From the NCBI GenBank assembly GCA_963789375.1, contig CAWBKN010000007.1, positions 36,188 through 100,187 of the forward strand: a stretch of 64,000 bases of DNA, written 5' to 3'. The position numbers and the translations under genes were made by a program. The notes beneath the pieces were generated by a model that was given only the letters and a program-made list of their open reading frames with translations, was not told the DNA's origin and made no database searches. This DNA is from an uncultured Gammaproteobacteria bacterium. GTDB taxonomy: Bacteria; Pseudomonadota; Gammaproteobacteria; Steroidobacterales; Steroidobacteraceae. Positions within the stretch are counted from its first letter, which is position 1. Each line of letters opens with the position of its first letter. Shown piece by piece: positions 1,661-44,500 of this stretch.

Positions 1661-2449
1661 GTGGGATTTCTGGCTGGCAAGCGAGCCCTGATCGTAGGGC
1701 TCGCGTCGGAGCGTTCGATCGCCTACGGCATCGCCGGCGCGATGCGCCGCGAGGGCGCGGAGCCTCGCGTTCACGTACCAGAACGAGCGGATCAAGGACC
1801 GCGTCGTCGAGATGGCGGAAGGCTTCGACTCGGTGCTGACGCTGCCGATGGACGTCGCCTCCGACGCGGAGATCGACACGGCCTTCGCGGCCATCCGCGA
1901 GGTCTGGGACGGCCTCGACATCATCGTGCACTCCGTCGGATTCGCACCGCGCGAGGCGCTCGCGGGCCGGTTCGTCGAGAGCACGACGCGCGAGGACTTC
2001 AGGGTCGCCCACGACATCTCGAGCTACAGCCTCACCGCGCTGGCCCGCGCCGGGCTGCCGCTGATGCTGGGCCGTGCCGGCTCGATCCTGACGCTGTCGT
2101 ACCTCGGTGCCGTGCGCTCGATCCCGAGCTACAACGTCATGGGCCTCGCCAAGGCGAGCCTGGAGGCGAACGTGCGCTTCCTGGCCGCGGACCTCGGGCC
2201 CGCAGAACATCCGCGTCAACGCGATTTCAGCCGGCCCCATCAAGACGCTGGCCGCGGCCGGCGTCGGCGGGTTCCGCAAGATGCTGTGCCTCGTCGCTGC
2301 GAGCCACGCCATTGCGTCGCAACGTGACGACGGAAGAAGTCGGCAATGCCGCGGCGTTTCTCTGCTCGGACCTGGCGTCGGGCATCACCGGCGAAGTGCT
2401 GTACGTCGATGCCGGGTACAGCCACGTGGGGATGAGCTTTCCGGAATAG
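1661..2449 (+). pseudogene. fabI: Enoyl-[acyl-carrier-protein] reductase (NADH) FabI, three frame breaks
   Basis: GTG start. [34 protein letters not shown] (frame 1661), then MAEGFDS...[25 protein letters not shown] (frame 1812), then [27 protein letters not shown] (frame 2107), then [39 protein letters not shown] (frame 1661). Collinear with E. coli FabI. Breaks near 1765, 2195 and 2290. Confidence 0.85.
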
Positions 2450-2492
2450 GAAGCGGATAGCGGATAGCGAATAGCGGATAGTGGAAGAGCGG
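2442..2492 (+). repeat. TAG-heptamer array (CGGAATAG-GAAG-[CGGATAG CGGATAG CGAATAG CGGATAG]-TGGAAGAGCGG); first unit contains the fabI stop codon
   Basis: Read directly. TAG at 2447, 2458, 2465, 2472 and 2479; the last four are 7 nt apart, so they cycle through all three reading frames. About 85-90% identical by eye to the inverted copy at 2987..3031. Confidence 0.9.
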
Positions 2493-2965
2493 CGACGCGG
2501 CGCCGCAGCGCCAGCCAGCGAGGCTGGTCAGACAGTTTGCCCCACCTCGTCGATGCTGTGACATCTGCGGCGCGCGCTGGCTCGCTGGCATGGATAGCCG
2601 ATCTGCTGCTGCGAGCAAGAGACTGAGTCTCGAGTTCAGCAAGTGAACTCGCGCTGCCACGATGCAGGAAGGCGACCGAAATCCTTGTCCTGCGCTTGCC
2701 GAACCTTCTGCGAGTTTGAAGCGACGGAAACGGCGCGCTCGCCGCATCTGGGCCGTCAACACCAGAAGCGTTCGGCCGGCGGGAAAATCCAGTCAGCTTG
2801 TGCATGTCGACGGCCAGCGTCGAGCGGCTCTCTGCCAGAAGCTCGAGACTCAGCTGGTGGCCACAGTGTTGGCTATCTTGCACGCGGTCAGCATCGTGCC
2901 GGCACTGCACGCGCCGGACAGTCGCCAGGATCACACCGGCCGACCGAAATACGGAGCTGCGGAAA

Positions 2966-2986
2966 GGAGCCGCCAGCGGCGGCTCC
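2966..2986 (-). terminator. Perfect 9-bp GC hairpin (GGAGCCGCC-AGC-GGCGGCTCC) downstream of ppiD, followed on the minus strand by TTTCC
   Basis: Stem/loop read directly. Position is immediately 3' of the ppiD-side heptamer array. The T-tract is weak. Confidence 0.5.
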
Positions 2987-3031
2987 CACTATCCGCTATC
3001 CGCTAGTCCGCTATCCGCTTCCGCTATTCCG
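2987..3031 (-). repeat. TAG-heptamer array, inverted copy (minus strand: CGGAATAG-CGGAAG-[CGGATAG CGGACTAG CGGATAG CGGATAG]-TGGGAGCC); first unit contains the ppiD stop codon
   Basis: The reverse complement of 2987..3031 reads ..ACG GAA TAG CGGAAGCGGATAGCGGACTAGCGGATAGCGGATAGTGGGAGCC. Same architecture and near-identical sequence to 2442..2492. Confidence 0.9.
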
Positions 3032-4937
3032 TCGCGAACAGCTTCTCGTTCCGCTTGATCTTCGCGGTCCGCCGCAGTTCGTCCAGGTAGGAATTGAGCT
3101 CGACCGACGCGGTCTGCTGCGCCAGGTTCTGGGCGAGGTCCGGCACCTGTGCGAGCTGCGCGGCGGGGTCGCCGCGGGCGCGCCGCGGTCACCACGAACA
3201 GGGCCTGGTCGCCCGAAGCGAGCGTGGTCGTGCCCGCACTGACCTTGCCGGCGCGCGGGCCGCGGGGCCTGGAAAATCGACTTGAGCATTTCGGGCGCAA
3301 TCGGCGCCGCGGTTTCGCCCTGCGGGCCAGCGCGCGTGACGGGCTGCACCGGGGTCGGCTGGGCGCCGGCGCTCGCGGCGACCGTGGCCAGCGCTTCGCC
3401 GGCATTGATACGCTGCGCCAGCGCCTTCGCGGTGTCGGCGGCTGCTTTGCGGGCGCCCTCCTCACGCAGCCGCGCCGTGATCTCGTCGCGCACTTCTTCC
3501 AGCGGCCGCTGCTTCGCGGGCTGGTGGTCCGTCACGCGCAGGACGACGACGCTCTCGTCGCCGATCGGGATCGGCGGGCTGTTCTGGCGCTCGACTGCAG
3601 GACCTCGTTGCTGAACGCGGCATCGATGACGTCGCGGCTGGTGCCCAGGGCGCCGCCGCCCTGGCGCGTGAAGCCCTCGACCGTCTGCAGCGTCATGCCG
3701 AGCTTCTTCGCCACGCTGTCGAGTTCGCTGAGCGCGGCGAAGGATTCGTCGGCCAGCTGCTGCGACTTCTCGTAGAACGCGTTCTGGGCCTGGTCCCGCC
3801 GGAATTCGGGCTCGAGCTCCGCGCGCGCCTCGTCGAAGCTGCGCACGTGCGGGGTCTCGATTTCCTCGAGCTGGATCACGTGGTAACCGAACTGCGTCCG
3901 GACGGGGCCGGCGATCTCGCGCCTGCTGCATGCCGAACAGCGCGTCGGCGAATTCCTTGACGTACGCCTCACGCGTCGCCCAGCCGAGTTCGCCGCCGGC
4001 ATCCTTCGAGCCGGGGTCGTCGGAGTTCTCGCGGGCCAGCTTGGCGAAGTCCTCGCCGCGCCTTCGCGCGCGCCAGGATGGCCTCGGCCTTCTTCTTCGC
4101 GGCCGCGTCGTCGCTGCCCCGCTCGATGAGGATGTGGCGCGCGCGGCGCCGTTCGGGCGTCGCGTTGCGGGCCGCGTTTTCCTCGTAGTACTTGCGCAGC
4201 GCCTCCTCGGTGACCTGCACGCTGGCCGCCATGTCGGCGAGGTTGAGCTTGAGGTACTGCAGCGCCACCGTCTCCTGCGTCATGAACTCCGACTTGTGCT
4301 TGCCGTAGTACGACGCCACGGTCTCCGGGCGTCACCGCGACCTGCGCGGCAAAAGCTGCGGCAGGAATGACGGCATAGGCGATGTCGCGCACTTCGCCCT
4401 GCAGCTCGAGGCGGCGCTTCATCTCGCCCGGCGTGACGAACGCGGAAAGGGCGATGGCGTTCTGCAGCTGCGAGGTCTCGAGGTCGCGGCGGAACTCGCG
4501 TTCGAAGTCGGCCTCGCTGCGGCCCTGCTGGCGCAGCAGCGCCGCGTAGCGGTCGCGCGAGAACTTGCCGTCGACCTGCAGCGCCTCGATCCGGGTGAGT
4601 GCCTCGGCGAGCTCCGGTCGCTGACGCGATAGCCGCTTTCGTTCGCGCGCTGCACGAGCAGCTCGCGCGCGATGTAGTCGTCGACCAGCTTCTGCTGCTC
4701 GGACTTGACCAGCTCGGGCGGCAGCTCGTCGCGCAGCTGCTGCTGCAGCTGGGACTGGCGCTCCTGCCAGGCGTTGACCAGGGTCTGCGCGGGGATCTTC
4801 TCGCCGTTGACCGTGGCGGCGGCCGTCGTCGTCGACGACTCGAACTGGATTCCCCAGAAGATGAAGACGACGGCGATCGCACCGAGGAACGTCGCCGCGA
4901 ACCAGCCCGTGATCTTGTCGCGAATCTTCTGCAGCAT
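3024..4937 (-). pseudogene. ppiD: Periplasmic chaperone / peptidyl-prolyl isomerase PpiD, about 7 frame breaks
   Basis: N-terminus MLQKIRDKITGWFAATFLGAIAVVFIFWGIQF (TM anchor). Parvulin block ARHILIERGSDDAAAKKKAEAILARAKA...GGELGW...GPVRTQFGYHVIQLEEI. C-terminus ..ASVELNSYLDELRRTAKIKRNEKLFATE-TAG. Pieces lie in ORFs 4419..5003, 3532..4422, 3969..4319, 3011..3931 and 2989..3465. Confidence 0.8.
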
Positions 4938-4944
4938 GACTTTT

Positions 4945-4984
4945 CTTAGGGGATAGCGGTTAGCGGATTGCGGATAGTAAGAGG
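4945..4984 (+). repeat. Solo TAG-heptamer array (CTTAGG-[GGATAG CGGTTAG CGGATTG CGGATAG]-TAAGAGG) between tRNA-Asp and the ppiD start
   Basis: Read directly. Same GGAAG-like/TRRGAGG architecture as the other arrays. Plus-strand orientation although both flanking genes are on the minus strand. Confidence 0.8.
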
Positions 4985-5542: not shown

Positions 5543-8002
<2,460 letters not shown>

Positions 8003-8102
8003 GTGGGGTCTCCGGACCGTCTGGCTCCCGCTCGCGCGTCGGCGCGGAGCGGGTTGGGTGAGGGCTTCAAAATATTATCGCGCCCTGTGGCGCGCAGGGG
8101 GG

Positions 8103-8131
8103 AGATTTGGGCGGCGGACCGAACTTTCAAG
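8103..8131 (-). promoter_or_regulatory. Candidate sigma-32 (heat-shock) promoter for lon
   Basis: The minus strand reads CTTGAAA-N13-CCCAAATCT (consensus CTTGAAA-N13/14-CCCCATNT), about 100 nt upstream of the lon start. lon is a classic RpoH regulon member. Confidence 0.5.
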
Positions 8132-8141
8132 GCCGGACGGA

Positions 8142-8253
8142 CGGCTAGTGACTAGTGGCTAGTGACTAGTGACTAGTAAGAGGTGCCGCTGCAGCGTGAC
8201 GTTCGGCTGCACCTCCTACTAGTCACTAGTCACTAGCCACTAGCCACTTCCGG
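8142..8253. repeat. Inverted pair of CTAG-rich TAG-heptamer arrays forming a long hairpin between clpX stop and lon promoter
   Basis: Left arm CGGCTAG TGACTAG TGGCTAG TGACTAG TGACTAG TAAGAGG (8142..8183). 28-nt centre with its own TGCAGC/GCTGCA stem. Right arm (8212..8253) reverse-complements to CCGGAAG TGGCTAG TGGCTAG TGACTAG TGACTAG TAGGAGG. Confidence 0.9.
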
Positions 8254-9558
<1,305 letters not shown>

Positions 9559-9685
9559 GTGCCGAAAATCCTGGTCCAGGAGGCTCAAAACCTGGCTCCG
9601 TGGCTTATACCACGCGAGCCCCCATCCGCAAAAATGCCCGCTGCCGACAGTGGACTTATGCTAGCCCCCGGCCGCTGCGACGCGC

Positions 9686-10324
9686 CTATACCCGCGTCGC
9701 CGAGCCCGCTTCGCCGCGCTGCTGCAGCACGGCGTCGATCAGGCCGTATGCGGTCGCCTGCTCGCCCGTCATGAAATTGTCGCGATCGGTGTCGGTCTTG
9801 ATCCGGTCGATGGTCTGGCCGGTGTGCTTCGCCAGGATCGTGTTCAGGCGGTGCCGGGCGTCGAGGATCTCACGGGCGTGGATCTCGATGTCCGTGGCCT
9901 GGCCCTGGAAGCCGCCGAGCGGCTGGTGGATCATCACGCGCGAATGCGGCAGGCAGAAGCGCTTGCCCTTCGCCCCGCCGGCCAGCAGCACCGCGCCCAT
10001 GCTCGCCGCCTGCCCGACGCAGATCGTGCTGACGTCCGCCCGGATGAACTGCATGGTGTCGTAGATCGCGAGGCCGGCGCTCACCGACCCGCCCGGCGAG
10101 TTGATGTAGATCGCGATGTCCTTCTCCGGGTTCTCGGATTCGAGGAACAGCAGCTGCGCCACCACCAGGTTGGCCATGTAGTCCTCGACCGGGCCCACGA
10201 GGAACACCACCCGCTCCTTGAGCAGGCGCGAATAGATGTCGTAGGCACGCTCGCCGCGCGCCGTCTGTTCGACGACCATCGGGACGAGGTTGAGGGCGCT
10301 GGGTTCGATGAATGACATGTGCAT
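9686..10324 (-). CDS. clpP: ATP-dependent Clp protease proteolytic subunit ClpP
   Basis: Intact 212-aa [31 protein letters not shown]..., catalytic context [11 protein letters not shown] and MIHQPLGG. The start may be the second ATG at 10318. Confidence 0.95.
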
Positions 10325-11620
10325 CAGGCTCCGAAGTTCATCAGTTCCTTGAACGTGGACGGCTGGTCGGTGACCTTCGCCCGCTCGAGCAGATAGTCCA
10401 CCACCTGGTCCTCCATCACCATGTTCTCGACCTGTCGCATTGCATCGGCATTCTGGCGGTACGCGCCGAGGATCGCATCCGGATCGGGGTAAGTGGCAGC
10501 CAGTTCAGCGAGCCGGGCATCGACCCGCGCGCGGTCGAGCTGCAGGCCCGTCGTCTTGACCAGCTCGCCCACGAGCAGGCCAAGCGCAACGCGCCGTCGG
10601 GCCGGCTCGACGAACGTATCCGGCGGCGGAACCTGCGATGCATCTTTCGCGCCAATGCGGCGGGCAGCGTCCACCTGCATGTCGCGGACCTGCTGCTCGA
10701 CCAGCGCCTTCGGCGCGTCGACCGGGTTCGCCTCGATGAAACGGTCGAACAGCTGCTGCTTCAGCCGCGCCAGGACGTTGGCCTGCAGCTCGCGGCGCAT
10801 GTTGTCCGCCACTTCGCTCAACAGTTGCTCGATACCGCCCTCGGTCACGCCGTACTCGCGGCAGAACTCGTCGTCGAGCGGCGGCAGCTGCTTTTCCTCC
10901 ACCTTCTTCACCTGGACGGAAAAATCTGCCGTGCGGCCGGCCAGGTCCTTGTTGTGGTACTCGGCCGGGTAGCCCACCGTCACCTGCTTCGCTTCACCCG
11001 CCTTGACGCCGGTGATGCCCGTCTCGAAGTCCTTGAGCATGCGGCCCGCGCCGAGCACGACCGCGACGTCCTTGCCCTCGCTGCCCTCGAAACCCTTGCC
11101 ATCGAGCTGGCCCTGGAAGTCCATCGTCACGCGATCGCCTTCGCGGCTCTCGCGCTCGACCGCTTCGAACTTCGGACGCTGCTCGCGGAGGTTCTGCACC
11201 ATGGCCTCGATGTCGGCCTGCGTGACCTCGGCGACCTGCCGGTTCACGGCCAGGCCCTCGACCCTGGCCGAGCTTGACCTCGGGGAAGACTTCGAAGATC
11301 GCGCGGTACTTGAGGTCTTCGCCCGGGGCGGTGGCGACCGGCTCGATGCGCGGGCCGGTGACCGGCACCAGCTTGGCTTCTGTGACCGCCTTCGTGAACG
11401 TCGACTGGACCAGGTCGCCGACGACCTCCTGGCGGACCTGCGCGCCGAACTGCTGGCGGATCACCTTGATCGGCGCCTTGCCCGGGCGGAACCCCTTGAG
11501 CTTCGCGGTGCGACTGACCTTCTTCAGGCGCTCGTCGACGGCCTGCTCGATCTGTTCCTTCGGAACGCTGACTTCGATGCGGCGCTCGAGGCTGCCGGTC
11601 GATTCGACGGAAACTTGCAT
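10324..11620 (-). pseudogene. tig: Trigger factor, one frame break near 11260
   Basis: MQVSVESTGSLERRIEVSVPKEQIEQAVDERLKKVSRTAKLKGFRPGKAPIKVIRQQFG (ORF 10994..11638) continues in ORF 10324..11247 (..VTMDFQGQLDGKGFEGSEGKDVAVVLGAGRMLKDFE.. FKBP-type PPIase domain). Confidence 0.88.
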
Positions 11621-11688
11621 GGGCTCTTCGGTCCTCAAGGGGGTCTGCGTGCCGGGGCTATGCCCGGAAAAGCCGCATATTGTGCCAT

Positions 11689-11787
11689 GGGGGAAGCGGT
11701 TAGCGGTTAGCGGTTAGCGGATAGGAAGAAACTCGATCCCAGCTATTTGCGGCCTGTCCGCCACCCGCTATCCGCTATCCGCTTGAA
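11689..11787. repeat. Inverted pair of TAG-heptamer arrays between tRNA-Leu and tig
   Basis: Left arm GGGGGAAG-[CGGTTAG x3, CGGATAG]-GAAGAA (11689..11730). 33-nt spacer. The right arm (11764..11787) reverse-complements to TTCAAG-[CGGATAG CGGATAG]-CGGG and sits 2 nt from the tRNA-Leu 3' end. Confidence 0.88.
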
Positions 11788-11789
11788 TC

Positions 11790-11875
11790 TGGTGCGAAAG
11801 GAGGGACTCGAACCCTCACGGGGGTTACCCGCTGGAACCTAAATCCAGTGCGTCTACCAGTTCCGCCACTTTCGC
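11790..11875 (-). tRNA. tRNA-Leu (anticodon TAG), long variable arm
   Basis: Reverse complement GCGAAAGTGGCGGAACTGGTAGACGCACTGGATTTAGGTTCCAGCGGGTAACCCCCGTGAGGGTTCGAGTCCCTCCTTTCGCACCA, 86 nt, encoded CCA. Confidence 0.93.
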
Positions 11876-11930: not shown

Positions 11931-13130
11931 TCAGCGATGCCGGTCGAGCAGGCGCATCGGCACCCAGGCCGCCAGCAGGCTGAGCACCAGCAGCGCCGTC
12001 GAGACATCCAGCACCCGGCCGTACTGGTCCTCGCCGATGACGAGCGCGGCGACCAGCGGGCCAGAGGCCATGCCCATTTTCGACGCGAACCCGCCCAGGG
12101 CCGCCATCTGGCCGGTCCGGTCGAATTCCGCGCTCATGCCGAGCAGGCACGGGATACCGAAAGCCCAGGTCATGCCGACGAGACAGTTGGCGACCAGGTA
12201 GACGGCCCCCGTGGCACTGAAGTGCAACGCCCAGGTACCGGCGGCGGTCAGCAGGATCGCCGTGACGAGCCGGAAGCTGCGCCCCCGTGCCGGTGACGAA
12301 AAAATGACCAGGGCCGCCCCCGCGAGCCCCAGCCAGGAGGCCGCGGCCAGCGTCGGGCTGATGAAGCTCATCGGATGCCCGGCATGCACGGCGAGGCCGA
12401 TCAGGTACGCCGACGCACCCATGTTGCCGGCCTGGAACAGGAACGTGGCGAGCAGGCTGAGCGCGAGCGGACCCTTGCGCACGCCCTCGCCGGCCTGGAT
12501 TGGCCGCGGCGGCACCGACGTCACCGGATAGCCGGTGAGGAAAGGCAGCATCGCCAGCGTCGCGAGGCTGAACAGGATCAGCGCGAGGAACAGCACGAAC
12601 GTGCCGTACACCGGCACGAGCGGCGGCAGCACCAGCATGCCCAGCCCACCGAGGCCGAACTGCACGAGCAGCAGGTAGCCGAAGGTGCGGTCGGTGTTCG
12701 AGGTGCGGGCAATGATCGAAAAGCCGACGCCGACCAGCATGCCGCCGAAGAGCCCGTGTCCGAAGCGCATCACGACCAGGGGCAGGAAGTGCTGCAGCAG
12801 CATCGACAGCAGGTCCATCGTGATCAGGCTCGCGAGCAGCAGGTAGGCGACTTTCTTCCAAGCGATGCGCTTGACGAAGAACACGGCGGCCAGCGCGCCG
12901 AGGGCAGCGCCGTAGATGTTGCTCGACGCCACCAGGCCGGCCTGGCGATTGGTGAAGCCCGCGCCCTGGATCAGTCCGTCCACCAGCGCCGGCATGATGT
13001 TGACGTAGTAGATGCCGGCACTGGCGAGGAACGCGAGCAGGACGCGCGCGATCTCGCCGTTGGGCGCGGCCTGCCGCAGCCCCAGCACGACGACGTGCCG
13101 CGGTGTTTCGTCCAGGGTGTTTGCGTTCAT
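11931..13130 (-). CDS. MFS transporter (substrate unknown)
   Basis: Intact. About 12 hydrophobic segments. Start taken at MNANTLDE.. inside ORF 11931..13247. No specific subfamily motif recognised. Confidence 0.75.
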   Translation of the reverse strand: MNANTLDETPRHVVVLGLRQAAPNGEIARVLLAFLASAGIYYVNIMPALVDGLIQGAGFTNRQAGLVASSNIYGAALGALAAVFFVKRIAWKKVAYLLLASLITMDLLSMLLQHFLPLVVMRFGHGLFGGMLVGVGFSIIARTSNTDRTFGYLLLVQFGLGGLGMLVLPPLVPVYGTFVLFLALILFSLATLAMLPFLTGYPVTSVPPRPIQAGEGVRKGPLALSLLATFLFQAGNMGASAYLIGLAVHAGHPMSFISPTLAAASWLGLAGAALVIFSSPARGRSFRLVTAILLTAAGTWALHFSATGAVYLVANCLVGMTWAFGIPCLLGMSAEFDRTGQMAALGGFASKMGMASGPLVAALVIGEDQYGRVLDVSTALLVLSLLAAWVPMRLLDRHR

Positions 13131-14785: not shown

Positions 14786-17377
<2,592 letters not shown>

Positions 17378-21956: not shown

Positions 21957-22108
21957 CTGCGGCGGTAGCGGTTAGCCCGAATGGCTGGCGGCGGGCTGCG
22001 GTTCGAAAATCGAGGTGCCAACCGACGGGTCGCCCGCCACGGTCAAGCACGCAGGTCGTCGTGGTATGCCGGCACGCAGCCCGCCCCGGTTTGGCGAGGA
22101 GACCCGAG

Positions 22109-38503: not shown

Positions 38504-41500
38504 TCACCGGTCGTCGTGGCTCAGGACCGCATCCGGCAGGTTGATGCCATGGTCGACGATGGTGAGATCGAGGCTGGCAAGCTCGCCGGCACTCCTGCCC
38601 ACGTTCTCACGCACGCCGGGCAGATCCGTCTCGACGCGGTCGCCGTCCCGGAAGTCGCTGGACACCAGGCTCAATGCGCTGGCGACAGCATCCGTGGCCG
38701 CATTCGACTGTGGCATGGTAATGACCAGCGCGCCGTCCACGAACGTGATCGTGTAGTTGCCGGCGGTCAGGCCCTGCGGGGTGATGACGTACTCGCCGAT
38801 GTCGATCGCGCCCTGGCTCGTGCCGCCGTAACCCAGCGTCCCGCCCAGCACCGTCTCGGTCTCGCCGTTGACGAAACCGCTGTAGCTCACGCCGTTGCCG
38901 CCGACGTACGCCTGGCCGTCGTAGGTCCGCTCGTCGTCGTTGGCGGTCACGGTCAGCGGCGCCGGAGTGATCGTCAGCACGCCATCCGCGTACGTGATGT
39001 CGTAGTTCCCCGCCCTCCCCGTACTGAACGTCTGCGCACTCGGCGTCAGCGGAGCAGCCGCACCCGCCGGCCGTCGTGGCAACCGCAGTAGACGATAGCG
39101 TCGCCGTGCCGAGCGCGTCGCCCGCAGCCAGCGTGCCGGTCGTCACCGTCACGGCACCGGAGGTCGGGTTCGCCCCGCCGTAGCTGCGCGCCGCGTCGTT
39201 CGCCCGCACGGTGATCGGGCGCTGGCTGATGGTCAGCGCACCGTTCGCGAAGGTGATGTCGTAGTTACCTGCCGTCAACCCCTGGGGGGTAATGACGTAG
39301 CTGCCGGCATCCGTCGCGCCCTGGCTCGAACCGCCGTACGACAGCGTTCCGCCCAGCACGGCGCTGGTCTCGCCATTGACGAAGCCGCTGTACGTGACGC
39401 CGTTGCCACCCGCGTAAGGCGAACCGTCGAACATCCGCGAGAAGTCGCTCGCCGTCACGGTGAGCGGCGCCTGGCCGATGACCAGCGCACCGTTGACGAA
39501 GGTGATGGCATAGTTGCCCGCGGTCAAGCCTTGCGGCGTGATCGCGTAGGTGCCCGCATTCACGGCGCCCTGGCTCGAACCGCCGTACGACAACGCGCCA
39601 CCCAGCACGGCACTCGTCTCGCCATTCATGAAGCCGGTGTACGTCACGCCGTTGCCGCCGCTGTAGGCCGCCCCGTCGTATGTCCGGCTGTCCCCATTCG
39701 CGATCACGCTGAGCGGCGCCTGCGTGATCGTCAGCGTGCCGTTCGCGTAGGTGATCGCATAGTTGCCCGCCGACCCCGTGGTGAACGTCTGCGCGCTCGG
39801 CGCGAGCGGCGCAGTCTGCCCCGCCGCCGCCGTGGCGGTAGCGGTCGAACTGAGCGACGCAGTGCCGAGTGCATCGTTGTTGGCCAGCGTGCCGCCCGTG
39901 AGCGTCACCGTGCCGCTCGTCGGGTTGGCATAGCCGTAGTACCGGCTGCGATCGTTAGCCTGCACCGTGATCGGACGCTGCGTGATGGTCAGCGTGCCGT
40001 TCGCATACGTGACCGCATAGTTGCCGGCCAGTCCGCTGGTGAAGGTCTGCGCGCTCGGAGTGAGCGGAGCCGCCGTCCCGGCTGCCGTCGTCGAAGTGGC
40101 CGTCGAGGACACCGCCGCCGTGCCGAGCGCGTCGGTCCCGACCAGCGTGCCGGCCGTGAGCGCCACCGCGCCCGTGGTCGGGTTCGCGTTGCCGTACACG
40201 CGACTCTGGTTGGCAGCGGTCACCGTGATCGGCCGCGGGCTGATGACCAGCGCGCCGTTCGTGAAGGTGATCGCGTAGTTACCCGCCGTGAGACCCTGCG
40301 GCGTGATGACGAACGTGCCCGCATTGGTCGCACCCTGGCTCGTGCCCGCATAGGACAGCGCGCCACCGAGCACCGCACTCGTCTCGCCGTTGACGAATCC
40401 GCTGTAGGCGACGCCGTTGCCGCCGCTGTAGGCCGTGCCGTCGAACGTCCGCGCAGCGTTGTTCGCGGTGACCGTGAGCGGCGCCTGGGTGATGGTCAGC
40501 GTGCCATTCGCATACGACACGCTGTAATTCCCCGCCAGGCCGCTGGTGAATGTCTGCGCGCTCGGGGTGAGCGGAGCCGCCGTTCCCGCCGCCGTCGTCG
40601 CCGTGGCCGTCGAGGACACGGTCGCCGTGCCGAGCGCATCCGTCCCGACGAGGTTGCCGGTCGTCACGGTGACGCCGCCCGGGTCGGATTCGCGCCGCCG
40701 TACGCACGGCTCTGGTTGTTCGCCGTGACCGTGATCGCCCGCGGGCCGATGGTCAGCGCGCCGTTGGCGTAGCTGATCGTATAGTTGCCCGCGGTCAGAC
40801 CCTGCGGCGTGATGACGTAGGCAGCCCGCATTCACGGCGCCCTGGCTCGTGCCGGTGTAGGCCAGCGAGCCGCCGAGCACCGAGCTGGTCTCGCCGTTGA
40901 CGAAACCACTGTAGGCCACGCCGTTGCCACCGCTGTAAGCCGTGGCATCGTAGGTCCGCGCGTAGTCGTTCGCGGTCACCGTGAGCGGCGCCCGCGTGAT
41001 GCTCAACGCGCCGTTCGCGTAGCTGATGGCGTAGTTGCCCGCCGTCAGCCCCTGCGGCGTGATGACGTAGGAGCCGACGTTCGTCGCGCCCTGGCTCGTG
41101 CCTGCATACGACAGCGAGCCGCCGAGCACCGAGCTGGTCTCGCCGTTGACGAACCCGCTGTAGGTCACGCCGTTGCCACCGCTGTAGGCGAGCCCGTTGT
41201 ACATCCGCGCTGAAGTCGCTCGCCGTCACCGTCAGCGGCGCCTTGCCGATGGTCAGCTGGCCGTTCACGAAGTTGATCGCGTAGTTCTGGGCCGTCAGCC
41301 CCTGCGGGGTGATGGCGTAAGCGCCGGCATTCGTCGCGCCCTGGCTGGACCCGCCGTACGTCAGGAGCCCCGCCCAGGACCGAGCTCGTCTCGCCATGCA
41401 CGAAGCCGCTGTAGATGACCCCGTTGCCGCCGCTGTAGGCGAGTCCGTTGTAGGTCCGCGTGAAGTCGTTCGCCGTCACGTTCAGCGGGGCCGCCGTGAT

Positions 41501-44500
41501 CCGGCCCACGCTGCCCGTGATCGTCGACGGCAGGCTGTAGTTCGAGAGGTCCGTCGTGCCGGTCGGCGAGTAATCGCTCGGCGTGAGCGACACCGTGACC
41601 TGCTTGTTGTCGCCGACGTTCGGATTGTCGTAGGTGCCGACGGTCTCGGTGACCGTCGCGCCGTCGCTGCCCACCCAGCCGGTCAGCAGGTAATTGCCCG
41701 GCACGAGGGTCGCGAGCGTGGTGCCGTCGTAGACCCGGCTGATCGAGCCCGCAAGGTTGCCCGTGACCACCACCAGCGGCCGCGACGAGATCGTGAGCAC
41801 GCCGTTGACGAACGACAGCATGTAGTTGCTGCTGGTCAGGCCACCGGGGACGATCGTGTACGCCCCGACCGCCGCCGCGCCCTGGCTCGTGCCGCCGTAG
41901 GTCAGCGTGCCGCCGAGCACCGCACTGGTCTCGCTGTTGACGAACCCGCTGTAGGTGACGCCGTTGCCGCCGCTGTAGGCGGTACCGTCGTAGACGCGGG
42001 TGAAATCGTTCGCCGTCACAGTGAGTGGCGCCTTGCCGATGGTCAGCGCGCCCGGCTGGAAGCTGATCTCGTAGTTCGCCGCCGTGAGCCCCTGCGGCAC
42101 GATCTGGTACGCACCGGCGTTGGTCGCGCCCTGGGCCGAGCCGCCATAGGACAGCGCGCCGCCGAGCACGGCGGTGCTTTCGCCGTTGACGAAGCCCGTG
42201 TAGGTGACGCCGTTGCCGCCGCTGTACGCGAGCCCGTTGTACATCCGACTGAATGCGTTGGCCTGGACCGTGAGCGGCGCCTGCAGGATATCCAGGCCGC
42301 CGTTCAGGAACGTGATCGCGTAGTTGGTCGACGTCAGGCCCGAAGGCGTAATGACGTACGGCCCCGCATTGATCGCGCCCTGGCTGGTGCCGCCGTAGGC
42401 CAGCGTGCCGCCCAGCACCGAGGCCGTCTCGCTATTGACGAATCCAGTGTAGGTGACGCCGTTGCCGCCGCTGTAGGCAAGGCCGTTGTACGTCCGCATG
42501 AAGTCGCTGGCCTTGATGGTCAGCGGCGCCTGCGTGATGTTCAGCGCCCCGTTGGCGAAGCTCAGCGCGTAGTTGCCCGACGTGAGCCCGGAAGGCGTGA
42601 TGACGTACGAACCGACGTTCTTCGCGCCCTGGCTCGTGCCGCCGTAGGCCAGCGTGCCGCCCAGCACCGCGCTGGTCTCGCTGTTGACGAACCCGCTGTA
42701 GGTGACGCCGTTGCCGCCGCTGTAGGCCAGCCCGGTGTAAAGCCGGCTGAAATCGCTGGCCGTGACGGTGAGGGGCGCCTTGCGAGATCGTCAACGCGCC
42801 GTTCACGAAGCTGATGGCATAGTTGCCAGACGTCAGCCCGGCGGGGTGATGACGTACGAACCTGCGTTCTTCGCGCCCTGGCTCGTACCGCCGTACGCCA
42901 GCGACCCGCCGAGCACGGCACTCGTCTCGCTGTTGACGAACCCGCTGTAGGTGACGCCGTTGCCGCCGCTGTAGGCGAGCCCGTTGTACATCCGGCTGAA
43001 GTCGTTCGCCGTGATGCTCAAAGGCGCCTGCGAGATGTTCAGCGCGCCATTGGCAAACGCTGATCGCATAGTTGCTCGAGGTCAGCCCGGACGGCGTGAT
43101 GAGGTAGGAACCCACGTTCTTCGCGCCCTGGCTGGTGCCGCCGTACGCCAGCGACCCGCCGAGCACGGCACTCGTCTCGCTGTTGACGAACCCGCTGTAG
43201 GTGACGCCGTTGCCGCCGCTGTAGGCGAGGCCCGTTGTAGGGGCGACTGAAGCCGCTGGCCGTCACGGTGAGCGGCGCCGGCGTGATCGTCAGAGGGCCG
43301 TTCGCGAAGCTGATCGCGTAGTTGCTCGAGGTGAGCCCCGACGGCACGATAACGTACGAGCCCGCATTGATCGCGCCCTGGCTCGTGCCGCCGTAGGCCA
43401 GCGTAGCCGCCCAGCACGGCACTCGTCTCGCTGTTGACGAAGCCGCTGTAGGTGACGCCGTTGCCGCCACTGTAGGCGAGGCCCGTGTAGGCCCGGCTGA
43501 AGGCGCTGGCCGTGATGGTCAGTGGCGCCTGCGTGATGCTGCCGATGTTGCCGGAGAGGCTCGTGGGCAGGCTGTAGTTCAGCAGGTCGGTCGTGCCCGT
43601 GGGCGTGTAGTCGCTGCGCGTCAGCGCCACCGTCACCAGCAGGTTGCTGCCGACATTGGCCTGCGAGTAGGTGCCGACGGTCTCCGTGACCGTCGCGCCG
43701 TCGCTGCCCACCCAGCCGGTGAGCTGGTAGTTGGCCGGGGTCAGCGTGGCGACGGTCGTGCCGGTGTAGGGGCGCGTGACGGAGCCGACGAGGCTGCCCG
43801 AGATGAGCGTGAGCGGTCGCTCGACGATCGAGAGCACGCCGTTCACGAACGCGATCTGGTAGTTACCGCTGGTCAGGCCGCCCGGGATGATCGTGTAGTC
43901 GCCGACGTTGATCGCGCCCTGGCTGGTGCCGCTGTAGGTGAGCGTGCCACCGAGCACCGAACTGGTCTCGCTGTTGACGAACCCGTTGTAGATGACGCCA
44001 TTGCCGCCGCTGTAGGGGACTGCGTCGTACTGCTTGGTGTCATTGTTGGCGGTGACGGAGAGCGGCGCCTTGGTGATCGACCCCACCGCCGCAGTCAGCG
44101 GCGTGACACGGTAGCCATAGACCGGCCTCGTGCCGTTCGTGACGTTATACGAGTTGGCGCCCGACACCGTGATGCTCTTGCCGGTGCCGACGTCCTTCGT
44201 GTCGTACAGGCCCGTGCTCGCGGCGTTCACATGGATGGTGTCCCCATCGATCGCGCCGCCGACGGAAGTGTAGTTGCTCGCCAGCAGGTTCGCCGTCCGC
44301 GTGCCGTCGTACTGCTTGGCGACCGTGCCGGTCAGGGTCGCCGTCACGGTCGGCGCTCGCGTGTAGATGAGGCCGTTGCCCGTGCCGAGGATCGTGCCGC
44401 CGTAGGCCGTGTCGTATTGCTTGAAGTCGTAGACGAGCCCGCCTCGCGTGTCGAGGTCGGGATTCGTCGAGTAGACGCGCCAGTACCCGCCGCCCGACAC

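Follow-up and report, generated by a model that had tools for sequence, protein, structure and literature searches.

Inverted TAG-heptamer arrays flank a frameshifted intervening-sequence protein gene between fabI and ppiD of a Steroidobacteraceae bacterium

The convergent genes fabI and ppiD of an uncultured Steroidobacteraceae bacterium, found in a 64,000-nucleotide stretch of DNA that was analysed as a whole (the window), are separated by an element in which two inverted arrays of heptamers ending in TAG enclose ~490 bp. A PF05635 "23S rRNA intervening-sequence protein" (IVP, or S23p) gene survives in this interior as a frameshifted relic. As the interior is a decayed PF05635 gene, the element is better described as a cassette of the intervening sequence (IVS) type than as an anonymous MITE. 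We consider it probable that positions 2450-3023 are an IVS-type cassette outside rRNA, namely a pseudogenised PF05635 gene closed by two inverted TAG-heptamer arrays, with arms that come from a lineage-specific family of heptamer-microsatellite hairpins. This family has the form 5'-(N4TAG)n-loop-(CTAN4)n-3', occupies intergenic gaps of this genome and of some relatives, and is mostly ORF-less.

Anatomy of the fabI-ppiD element

Read directly from the sequence, the two arms are inverted (N4TAG)4 arrays (Table 1). Alignment of one arm with the other gave 48 identical columns of 55, with 2 mismatches and 3 indels, and when the whole 596-nt element was folded, the arms paired in the minimum-energy structure (z = -9.2). 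No palindrome occurs within the tandem array of an arm, and a hairpin arises only from the arm pair. A first-pass annotation had described a ~590-bp element with the arrays as its terminal repeats, in inverted orientation, which these results bear out, and had noted a stop in all three frames, which can be followed in the left array (TAG at 2458, 2465, 2472, and 2479). The flank pattern that it gave, GGAAG-(units)-T[AG][AG]GAG, holds in the window; relatives carry the version RGGAAG-(GGGGWTA)n-G-TCGGA.

The motif TAG-N4-TAG-N4-TAG was matched 16 times in the window and not once in 100 dinucleotide shuffles, and CGGATAGCGGATAG with up to 2 mismatches was found 12 times against an expectation of 0.34. 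A chance origin of the TAG-heptamer arrays is excluded. Period-7 arrays were reported by TRF at 2452, 2989, 4947, 8145, 8218, 11695, and 11757. Rfam searches of the window and three relatives returned no family at the gathering threshold, and no rRNA was found in the window; sub-threshold matches to miRNA precursors at 8144-8251 were rejected as the reflection of a generic long hairpin.

Both neighbouring genes run up to the arms. The 3' end of fabI reads CCG GAA TAG followed by GAAG, and that of ppiD, on the minus strand, ACG GAA TAG followed by CGGAAG, with the ppiD frame confirmed by three-frame translation. Compared with the proteins of relative L081, FabI was identical at 226 of 261 positions in a frameshift-aware alignment with 3 frameshifts, and PpiD at 469 of 634, the orthologue being labelled by Pfam.

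For the interior, whose gene the first-pass annotation had missed, Pfam searches of the three raw frames gave no match, and tblastn of an intact IVP against the window placed its best match at the relic with an E value of 0.23, a weakness explained by the frameshifts in the relic. Frameshift-aware alignment was therefore needed. Dynamic programming against the IVP of relative L001 gave a score of 127, while shuffles scored 31.8 ± 4.8 and the plus strand 49; against the L081 IVP, the score was 134, with 9 frameshifts in 344 nt. A hand-stitched translation of the relic matched PF05635 with an E value of 3.4e-19 (2.5e-37 for the intact L001 orthologue). No second IVP copy was found in the 64-kb window. 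The frameshift-rich neighbouring genes of this assembly weaken the call of a pseudogene, not the IVP homology. The IVP/S23p family is a relative of DGR Avd.

Table 1. Features of the fabI-ppiD region and further heptamer arrays of the window
Feature	Position	Strand	Remarks
fabI (enoyl-ACP reductase)	1661..2449	+	By translation; stop TAG 2447-2449; 3 frameshifts in this assembly
Left arm	2450..2492	+	Outer flank (G)GAAG; heptamers 2454-2481, CGGATAG CGGATAG CGAATAG CGGATAG; inner purine-rich flank TGGAAGAGCGG
PF05635 (IVP/S23p) gene relic	2490..2837	-	~8-9 frameshifts
Leader between right arm and IVP homology	2838..2979	-	~100-140 nt, GC-rich, structured in the fold of the element; position inferred from alignment beginning at residue 15
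Right arm	2980..3023	-	Minus-strand reading: CGGAAG, CGGATAG CGGACTAG CGGATAG CGGATAG, then TGGGAGCCG; heptamers span 3017-2989, inward of them TGGGAGCC
ppiD (periplasmic chaperone/PPIase)	3024..4937	-	Stop TAG 3024-3026; 7 frameshifts in this assembly
Solo array	4947..4984	+	TAG-oriented on plus strand, hence CUA-oriented in ppiD 5' leader; inner flank TAAGAGG
ORF-less hairpin between clpX stop and lon	8141..8252		Arms (TGRCTAG)5 and complement; palindromic 42-nt spacer; stem ~46 bp
ORF-less hairpin between tRNA-Leu and tig	11692..11787		Arms (CGGTTAG)3-CGGATAG and degenerate complement; fold z ~-4.9 on both strands
Weak two-unit remnant	21958..21972	+	GGTAGCGGTTAG; below 3-unit criterion

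Orthologous sites and the dispersed array family

The relatives used for comparison were Steroidobacteraceae MAG loci (designated by L-numbers). Alignment of the orthologous fabI-ppiD gaps, which had been proposed at the outset, revealed that the element is absent from close relatives, with gaps of 14 bp (L003) and 37 bp (L004) that hold no arrays. An ORF-less inverted array pair occupies the gap in L005, and arrays together with an intact IVP gene are found there in L001, L081-84, L088-91, L222, and L224, the gene lying in the opposite orientation to the window relic. Against the empty sites of L003 and L004, neither a target-site duplication nor a footprint of excision was recognisable, because these relatives are too diverged (80-83% nucleotide identity in the flanking genes). 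Unit number at this site differs among near-identical contigs, with 3 in L082 and 6 in L081 and L083.

It had also been claimed that the arrays supply the stop codons of both genes. This does not stand for fabI and ppiD, which in array-less L003 still end in Glu-TAG at the same position, as does ppiD of L004; judged from these alignments, the stop codons are ancestral rather than supplied by the arrays, and their positions are immediately outside the GGAAG outer flank or overlapping with it. Across the family, the claim holds in part, as an array TAG serves as the stop of 29 of the 59 abutting genes (18, 7, and 4 on the first and later TAGs). These 59 genes correspond to 34% of 175 arrays, for which a sense gene ends within -42 to +14 nt, compared with 1.9% of random positions, so that the suggested bias of a dispersed family to gene 3' ends is confirmed. 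In this test, the true frame was called by GC3 phasing; an earlier version (67% vs 8%) was discarded as biased, since arrays close every open frame.

Selection of the arrays chiefly as three-frame translational stop pads, acting as backup terminators at gene ends, would accord with the stop counts and their excess on the first TAG, with a period of 7 that closes all frames within 3 units, and with the TAG-bearing arm always being met first from either side. We nevertheless regard it as very unlikely. The fabI and ppiD stops are ancestral, homologous arms carry no stop codon in Xanthomonas (GGGAATC), L085 and L223 (GGAAGSGCA), Gemmatirosa, and Stanieria, and numerous arrays are placed ahead of genes or behind tRNAs, positions that ribosomes do not reach.

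Related arrays had been listed in the window at 4945, 8142, 11689, and 21958. The first three are real and the fourth is weak, with two units only; what had been missed is that 8145/8218 and 11695/11757 are inverted array pairs with short spacers. The hairpin at the former folded with dG values of -87 and -91 kcal/mol (z -10.5 and -11.7), and was also compared at the orthologous sites of relatives. The solo array is situated 9 nt before the ppiD ATG (4935-4937), on the non-coding strand of this gene. A separate, canonical terminator precedes it. The number of units at the ppiD-upstream site is 1 in L003, L001, and L084, 4 in the window and L002, and 5 in L088. To judge from these sequences, one conserved unit seems to have expanded into the array in place, in which case arrays need not arrive by transposition.

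Among the 40 nearest syntenic loci, TRF arrays occur in only 4, and TAG-heptamer arrays are found in the same 4 of all 80 loci. Arrays of high-GC loci have 3-7 units, commonly 4. Arm polarity is fixed, with 61 plus/minus (convergent inverted) pairs against 3 minus/plus pairs, and spacers are bimodal, at 4-130 nt or, in IVP-bearing copies, 449-507 nt. About 4 inverted pairs per 20 kb were counted in L084, and the ORF-less copies of some relatives have a conserved ~75-nt core in common. The dispersed hairpins of each genome are built of the same unit as its IVP cassette; units differ between genomes, changing in concert on both arms. An IVP gene was present in 1 of 120 metagenome loci selected by pattern, making IVP-bearing copies a small minority, and the IVP gene may be a passenger of the hairpins, not their partner. 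The REP/MITE-like architecture proposed for the family agrees with these observations.

Three other candidates were rejected. Two arrays of L154 lying 2.4 kb apart, considered as an element with cargo, are solo arrays on either side of an ordinary tsaD; CsrA (GGA) sites do not account for GGGGTTA and TGACTAG units, which contain no GGA; and tandem footprints of target-site duplication would yield direct flanking repeats, not inverted ones.

IVP genes and short-repeat arms in other bacteria

The contexts of 21 IVP genes from other bacteria were not a random sample: 13 belong to close homologues, and 8 are plasmid matches picked across taxa with their flanks as yet unseen. Five phyla are represented, and the set includes Xanthomonas; cyanobacterial, Bacteroidota, and Gemmatimonadota plasmids; and an Azospirillum 23S IVS. 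Tandem arrays of 7-9 nt adjoin the IVP ORF in all 21 contexts, with a period of 7 in 15 and of 8-9 in the rest. The flanking inverted-repeat score exceeded the 95th percentile of random placements in 19 and the null maximum in 17 (null 11.4 ± 2.4). As predicted beforehand, GGGAATC and GATTCCC arrays enclose the XCC0516-type IVP gene of Xanthomonas, which is situated between accB and accC. The Azospirillum case, located within a 23S rRNA gene, is a true 23S IVS with heptamer-array arms, and IVP genes of Anabaena and Nostoc plasmids are bracketed by heptamer tandem arrays. These 21 non-random contexts from five phyla show a general association of IVP genes with short-repeat arms, inside and outside rRNA.

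The same type of cassette was found at sites unrelated to the fabI-ppiD gap, between peptidase M20 and DsbB (L092), between PEPCK and a cyclase, with octamer arms (L085), beside a PIN toxin-antitoxin pair (L223), and in a locus of 42% GC (L199). The composite of outer GGAAG, arrays, TCGGA inner flank, and IVP gene recurs at unrelated sites.

This recurrence bears on a reading in which the arrays are plain microsatellites produced by polymerase slippage at gene ends, with G-quadruplex (G4) or other non-B DNA as the relevant property, no element, and the IVP gene as an unrelated neighbour. Slippage is evident in the unit numbers of near-identical contigs, and where some species have one conserved unit upstream of ppiD, others have 4-5. 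G-tracts of at least 3 in at least 4 units, which allow G4, are present only in the GGGGWTA arms of relatives; (GGGGTTA)n arms could form G4, and the same placement rules were given by Rehm et al. (PMC4692102), where G4 was proposed for GGGAATC repeats; a literature search by unit strings returned only G4 oligonucleotide papers, with the GGGGTTA repeat there solely as a model oligonucleotide for G4. In the window, however, no unit (CGGATAG, CGAATAG, CGGTTAG, or TGACTAG) has a G-tract longer than GG, and G4 cannot therefore be the shared property. Independent slippage would not be expected to give matched arms with a polarity of 61:3, nor does it account for a whole composite at unrelated sites or for array-bracketed IVP genes in 19-21 of 21 cases across phyla. 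We consider this reading unlikely.

A second reading takes the arrays for REP/REPIN-type elements that a RAYT (Y1 transposase), encoded at another place in the genome, moves in the form of single-stranded DNA, and the 590-bp unit for a REPIN doublet whose spacer is unusually long; this reading appears quite improbable. REP units are imperfect palindromes of 20-40 nt with a conserved GTAG-type head, and RAYT corresponds to PF01797. The family resembles REP/REPINs in its intergenic inverted hairpin doublets, genome-specific sequence, presence/absence polymorphism, and abundance (as in L084), and in combining many ORF-less copies with a gene flanked by inverted repeats. Unlike single GTAG-headed palindromes, though, the arms are tandem 7-mer microsatellites, and the repeat-flanked gene, at the hallmark position of RAYT, is in every case an IVP gene, which encodes a four-helix-bundle protein with no known catalytic activity rather than a Y1 transposase. 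No transposase gene was present among the genes called around those IVP-gene loci that carry a gene table.

The arrays could instead be bound by an oligomeric protein that recognises a 3-nt motif in nucleic acid at intervals of 7 nt, with the toroidal IVP pentamer as candidate, the ORF-bearing copy as master, and the ORF-less hairpins as clients, by analogy with RAYT and REPINs. Such a role would fit the constant physical link of IVP genes to 7-9-nt arrays across phyla, the unit common to the hairpins and cassette of each genome, its concerted change on both arms between genomes, and the usual 3-6 units when set beside a pentameric toroid (2GSC; PMC4990558). A precedent exists in the HutP hexamer of Bacillus, an antiterminator that binds UAG-N4 three times, at two sites of three units on hut mRNA (PMC2425495). 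In the HutP site, UAG recurs exactly every 7 nt and the spacer bases are free, as here, but neither a HutP homologue nor a histidine-utilisation context accompanies these arrays, and the likeness is an analogy only. Against a binding role, the arrays of the window are intact although its IVP copy is dead and no other lies within 64 kb, and S23p of Coxiella is apparently not produced in vivo (PMC4990558). The single IVP gene among 120 array-selected loci also counts against it, though this is compatible with a master/client ratio. Overall, the binding role is improbable.

Some elements lie inside operons (accB and accC, cas6 and cas4, cas10 and cmr3, clpX and lon), where termination would be harmful. 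This argues against the hairpins being bidirectional transcription terminators between convergent genes, a role suggested by their very stable stems and by their position between fabI and ppiD and other convergent pairs. No U-tract follows either arm, a scan for intrinsic terminators found none at the arrays, and the canonical terminator ahead of the solo array is a structure apart from it; a terminator role is extremely unlikely.

Relation to known systems and implications

IVSs with an S23p/IVP ORF are known from the 23S rRNA of Coxiella burnetii, Leptospira, and Brucella (PMC4990558). The Coxiella IVS is 428-444 nt long, with a 28-bp terminal stem, 2-3 GACAGAT heptamers in strain-variable number before the S23p ORF, an RNase III cut at the start of the first repeat, and a decaying ORF (PMC4990558). 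The IVS-type cassette that we favour for the fabI-ppiD gap is similar in size (about 430-590 nt overall), in its single small and decay-prone PF05635 ORF, in terminal inverted repeats that form a 28-45-bp stem (28 bp in Coxiella), and in 5' tandem heptamers whose number varies between strains (four per arm in the window); its arms have the same design as the heptamer-array arms of the Azospirillum 23S IVS. It differs in lying between protein-coding genes, not in helix 9, 25, or 45 of 23S rRNA, and in having arms made wholly of heptamers ending in TAG, which also occur ORF-less in other intergenic gaps of the window. As there is no rRNA insertion, it is filed as an IVS-like cassette outside rRNA and not as an rRNA IVS. 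To our knowledge, rRNA is the only context where IVSs have been studied, and that this element is not in rRNA counts against the favoured reading.

The first-pass annotation had not recognised a described repeat family, which was too strong a statement. The closest relatives of the arm family are the heptamer repeats of Xanthomonas and Nostoc, with the same placement and inverted pairs (PMC4692102), and the Coxiella IVS heptamers (PMC4990558). Rehm et al. (2015) reported intergenic GGGAATC and GGGGA(C/T)T heptamers, in 2-26 copies with a mode of about 4, which lie on the coding strand where they follow a stop within 50 bp (overlap included) and on the non-coding strand where they precede a start (PMC4692102). 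The long SSRs described by Mrazek et al. in 2007 (cited in PMC4679880) are grouped with these heptamers. The present arrays have the purine/G-rich 7-nt unit, the roughly four copies, and the intergenic location in common with them, as well as a G-rich strand that is coding just after stops and non-coding just upstream of starts, many convergent inverted pairs, and length variation between close relatives. The window units (CGGATAG, CGGTTAG, TGACTAG) differ in having GG in place of G3-4 and a stop codon in every unit, and hence the G4 rationale does not carry over. The IVP-gene link is absent from that paper (PMC4692102).

The analogy to cyanobacterial STRRs drawn by the first-pass annotation was reasonable, as STRR and TAACTGA repeats are intergenic heptamer tandem arrays near start codons (PMC4679880), although the Xanthomonas/Nostoc and Coxiella heptamers are closer. 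The TAACTGA survey lists 169 direct sets and one inverted (PMC4679880), and these repeats are described as direct arrays, with neither inverted-pair architecture nor IVP link. MITEs are likewise short, with terminal inverted repeats, presence/absence polymorphism, and ORF-less copies that outnumber ORF-bearing ones. They differ from the present family, in which no target-site duplication was seen against diverged empty sites, no transposase partner is known, and the ends are tandem arrays of variable length.

For the favoured IVS-type cassette, the following course of events is proposed. When a transcript crosses the element, the arms would pair as a ~45-bp duplex, and by analogy with rRNA IVSs RNase III would cut this duplex, so that the insert is either excised or severed, without effect on the genes at its sides; such processing in this organism is suggested by that analogy and could explain the tolerance of cassettes at gene ends, even in operons. 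Replication slippage would lengthen or shorten the arrays, with arm complementarity kept by selection for the duplex, by hairpin-templated correction, or by both. The cassette may move to new sites and flip its orientation by recombination with other hairpins through 30-45 bp of arm homology. A TAG in each 7-nt unit would stop ribosomes in three frames from either side, as a side benefit and not a defining function.

A broader reading, speculative and rather doubtful at present, is that IVP/S23p proteins and short-tandem-repeat hairpins are the two parts of a single widespread system. Its master would be the repeat-flanked IVP gene, encoding a toroidal pentamer that recognises or maintains arrays with a motif at a 7-nt period; the ORF-less hairpins (Xanthomonas GGGAATC pairs, cyanobacterial heptamers, and TAG arrays, in their hundreds) would be non-autonomous copies, and the classical 23S IVSs copies that landed in rRNA.

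Cassettes of this kind at gene ends and in operons bring stops in all frames, strain-variable length, and breaks in short-read assemblies, which together affect the annotation of stop codons and 3' UTRs. The arrays of the Xanthomonas IVP gene are the published "G-quadruplex" GGGAATC repeats, and G4 formation is probably not what heptamer repeats have in common. Two puzzles that were kept separate for decades, namely the role of the 23S IVS ORF with the origin of IVSs, and the over-representation of 7-nt repeats in some genomes, prove to be physically one in the link between IVP genes and arrays, which makes both testable in tractable organisms, for example at accB-XCC0516-accC of Xanthomonas. 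If the two-part system were true, it would provide a function for both the IVP family and the bacterial heptamer repeats, as RAYT explained REPs.

Inverted heptamer arrays and their turnover

In the window, fabI faces ppiD, behind which tRNA-Asp, tRNA-Val, hupB, lon, clpX, clpP, tig and tRNA-Leu follow on the reverse strand. The inverted TAG-heptamer arrays that the first-pass annotation had placed at 2442-3031 were borne out by re-inspection of the sequence; the two element ends are identical in 48 of 55 aligned columns, and the window contains TAG-N4-TAG-N4-TAG 16 times, versus 0 in 100 shuffles. TRF returned period-7 arrays at 2452, 2989, 4947, 8145, 8218, 11695, and 11757, with 8145/8218 and 11695/11757 forming inverted pairs around spacers of 42 and 32 nt, respectively. 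Related arrays claimed at 4945, 8142, and 11689 were thereby recovered, whereas that at 21958 has two units only. The arrays had also been held to supply the stop codons of fabI and ppiD, but species that lack arrays have the same Glu-TAG ending in both genes, at an unchanged residue; the stops are ancestral, then, and the arrays lie against or across them. As a whole, the earlier interpretation was supported in part.

Positions of array-associated features (L numbers are compared loci or contigs)
Feature	Locus	Position	Strand	Detail
fabI stop GAA TAG	window	2447-2449	+	from sequence
Left array	window	3' of fabI; units 2454-2481	+	GAAG, then CGGATAG, CGGATAG, CGAATAG, CGGATAG, then TGGAAGAGCGG
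ppiD stop GAA TAG	window	3026-3024	-	frame verified by three-frame translation
Right array	window	3' of ppiD	-	CGGAAG, four units (one an 8-mer), TGGGAGCCG
TAG-GAAG junction	window	2447-2453		
TAG-GAAG junction	L001, L084, L088	clpX stop		
TAG-GAAG junction	L009	ppiD stop		
ppiD-fabI gap	L003			14 bp, without arrays
ppiD-fabI gap	L004			37 bp, without arrays
ppiD-fabI gap	L005			inverted pair without ORF, spacer 48 nt
ppiD-fabI gap	L009			arrays around 330-nt interior; IVP not detected there
ppiD-fabI gap	L006	14930-15090		unrelated long palindrome, (TAGG)3 ... GGCACCTACTGACC x2
CUA-oriented array before ppiD ATG	window	4937-4977		
CUA-oriented array before ppiD ATG	L002	about 13034-13067		
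CUA-oriented array before ppiD ATG	L088	12334-12371		
~75-nt-core hairpins	L084	3915-4043, 5200-5336, 19124-19265		
~75-nt-core hairpins	L088	3900-4060, 5190-5360		
~75-nt-core hairpin	L001	15044-15177		
IVP gene in cas operon	L231	Anabaena sp. 90 pANA02		cas6, IVP, cas4
IVP gene in cas operon	L237	Picosynechococcus PCC 7003 plasmid		cas10, IVP, cmr3

For comparison, 80 syntenic loci were retrieved via Lon from GTDB species representatives, the nearest being Steroidobacteraceae MAGs (top Lon identity 91%). TAG-heptamer arrays were found among these 80 only in L001, L002, L005, and L009, and TRF over the nearest 40 gave period-7 arrays in the same four and no others. The unrelated palindrome of L006 marks the convergent ppiD-fabI gap as a hot spot for palindromic insertions. 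Arrays occupy the clpX-lon gap in the window, L001, L084, and L088, and none were found there in L081 or L002-L006. A conserved CCTCTTA-CTATCC[CG] lies upstream of ppiD; no extra unit follows it in L003, L001, and L084, and the total is four units in the window and L002 and five in L088, a range from which it follows that arrays can grow in place. The near-identical contigs L081, L082, and L083 carry 6, 3, and 6 units.

The unit itself differs by genome: GGGGWTA in L001, L081, L084, L088, and L092, CGGATAG in L002 and the window, and CGGTTAG and TGACTAG in L009 and the window. In L001, L081, L084, and L088 the (GGGGTTA)n arms hold at least four G4 tracts separated by TTA loops, and published work has used this sequence as a model oligonucleotide for G-quadruplexes; units of the window cannot form G-quadruplexes. 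At least one of the features tested speaks against reading the arrays purely as microsatellites arisen in situ with a G4 function.

Several further features of these sites were observed. The amber stop recurrently overlaps or abuts the outer GGAAG flank of the element, which may point to amber stops as a preferred target. ppiD lacks a recognisable Shine-Dalgarno sequence, and in three genomes a CUA-oriented array reaches to 8-12 nt from its ATG. In the clpX-lon gap of L084 (reverse strand, about 15420-15680), the heptamer array directly 3' of the clpX stop encloses an array of 9-mers, (GGAAGGTCA)x4.

A probably decayed IVP gene between the arms

The corresponding gap of L001, the nearest relative, spans ~535 bp, in which (TAGGGGT)n and its complement flank an intact 130-codon ORF matching PF05635 (23S_rRNA_IVP, E 2.5e-37) and TIGR02436 (four helix bundle protein, E 1.1e-33); a relative of solved structure is 2GSC, XCC0516 of Xanthomonas campestris. 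Frameshift-tolerant alignment of this intervening-sequence protein (IVP) to the window interior scored 127 on the minus strand (2490-2837), against 31.8 +/- 4.8 for shuffles and 49 for the plus strand, and the stitched translation matched PF05635 at 3.4e-19. The relic is reversed relative to all relatives: window and L001 align plus/plus in the interior and plus/minus in the flanks, and the IVP gene is co-directional with fabI in L001, L081-84, L088-91, L222, and L224. A reading as elements of REPIN/RAYT type conflicts with at least one of the features tested.

Relative to orthologues, 3 frameshifts were counted in fabI, 7 in ppiD, at least 1 in tig, and none in the intact lon, clpX, and clpP (4.4 kb). 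Those in fabI and ppiD mean that the contig is error-prone or locally decayed; their clustering at 1661-4937 and 10324-11640, compared with 5543-10324, is unexplained by a uniform sequencing-error rate and thus points either to insufficient polishing of this stretch or to genuine decay. With ~9 frameshifts in 344 nt, roughly 7x the density in fabI and ppiD, the relic is probably a pseudogene. At 39218-43538, very long tandem repeats (249, 258, and 498 bp; as many as 11 copies) presumably belong to a giant repetitive surface-protein gene.

The reading of the element as a cassette of the 23S rRNA intervening-sequence (IVS) type, probably pseudogenised and lying outside rRNA, is well supported. 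In Coxiella, the IVS (428-444 nt) has a 28-bp terminal stem, a decaying S23p ORF and, 5' of it, two or three strain-variable GACAGAT heptamers, the first of which is cut by RNase III at its start; an old proposal regards IVSs as former mobile elements, with an ORF that had a role in mobility (PMC4990558). PF05635, termed functionally uncharacterised in the literature, is related to DGR Avd (PMC10053308), a link also given by a sub-threshold NCBIfam match.

Heptamer hairpins and gene ends

It is likewise well supported that the cassette arms belong, as one member, to a lineage-specific family of heptamer hairpins. Scanning metagenomes for three units and a following T gave at least 120 loci (GC 0.37-0.71). 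Over all loci, the metagenome matches listed among them, neighbouring opposite-strand arrays ran TAG-arm then CTA-arm 61 times and the reverse 3 times; spacers there fell into classes of 4-130 and 449-507 nt, and the longer class consists precisely of the IVP-bearing copies. Predicted folds were very stable for 8130-8262 (-87 and -91 kcal/mol, z -10.5 and -11.7), 11685-11795 (z about -4.9), and the full 596-nt element (z -9.2, arms paired). Neither arrays nor hairpins matched an Rfam family. The idea that the paired arms act as a bidirectional terminator runs counter to at least one of the features tested; no terminator-type T-tract was found at the arrays. ORF-less hairpins of GGGGTTA-type genomes share an oriented ~75-nt core, a candidate structured RNA or MITE core, that includes a conserved TTTCAGAGGCGGAGCTGC and an inner hairpin; the stem of this hairpin varies in sequence while complementarity is kept.

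With the true upstream frame called by GC3 phase, a sense gene ended -42 to +14 nt from the first TAG at 59 of 175 arrays (1.9% for random positions). Its stop lay before the array in 29 cases and at the first, second, or third TAG in 18, 7, and 4. At least one of the features tested disagrees with a dedicated stop pad; halting of ribosomes from either side by TAG units would be a by-product. The arm duplex would be an RNase III substrate insulating the flanking genes, arm length could change by slippage, and arm homology could permit inversion and transfer between hairpins. A protein-binding array is less likely, with at least one of the features tested speaking against it, yet it is the most interesting of the readings that remain; its precedent is HutP, which binds UAG-N4 three times (PMC2425495).

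IVP genes with repeat arms across phyla

Close IVP homologues lie between M20 and DsbB genes (GGGGWTA arms, the DsbB stop being the outermost TAG), between PEPCK and cyclase genes (octamer GGAAGSGCA arms), beside a PIN/PhdYeFM pair with similar arms, and on a GC-42% contig (CGGTTAG arms). Rehm et al. described, in Xanthomonas and Nostoc, GGGAATC and GGGGAYT heptamers that are intergenic, transcribed, without known function, and most often of four units, with the coding strand beside stops and the non-coding strand beside starts, and with 70-75 inverted pairs per Xanthomonas genome; XCC0516, accB, and S23p receive no mention there (PMC4692102). As predicted, the published GGGAATC repeats flank the crystallised Xanthomonas IVP: in X. 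spp. and X. sacchari its gene sits between accB and accC, with GGGAATC units 3' of the accB stop and GATTCCC-type units reaching the accC ATG.

Eight plasmid homologues, chosen across taxa before their flanks were seen, came from Anabaena, Nostoc (two), Stanieria, Picosynechococcus, Gemmatirosa, Riemerella, and Azospirillum. Inverted tandem arrays lay on both sides in seven, the Nostoc PCC 7120 copy having an array downstream only (160 nt read); two armed genes lie within cas operons. The Azospirillum lipoferum 4B copy (plasmid AZO_p2, L235, 13998-15067) is a true 23S rRNA IVS with an IVP ORF, and its termini are heptamer arrays (CAGAGGA CGGATGA CAGAGGA CGGAGGA ... TCCTCTG TCTTCTG TCATCCG). 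Scored over 150 nt either side of the ORF, inverted repeats exceeded the 95th percentile for random placement in 19 of the 21 IVP contexts, and in 17 they surpassed the null maximum; arrays had a period of 7 in 15 contexts and of 8-9 in the others.

A literature search, with subscription journals outside its coverage, found no paper linking IVP genes outside rRNA to tandem-repeat arms. IVP genes appear everywhere to lie between inverted short-repeat arrays that are the genome's dispersed heptamer repeats, and it is this regularity, apparently unreported in the searchable literature, that gives the finding its interest.
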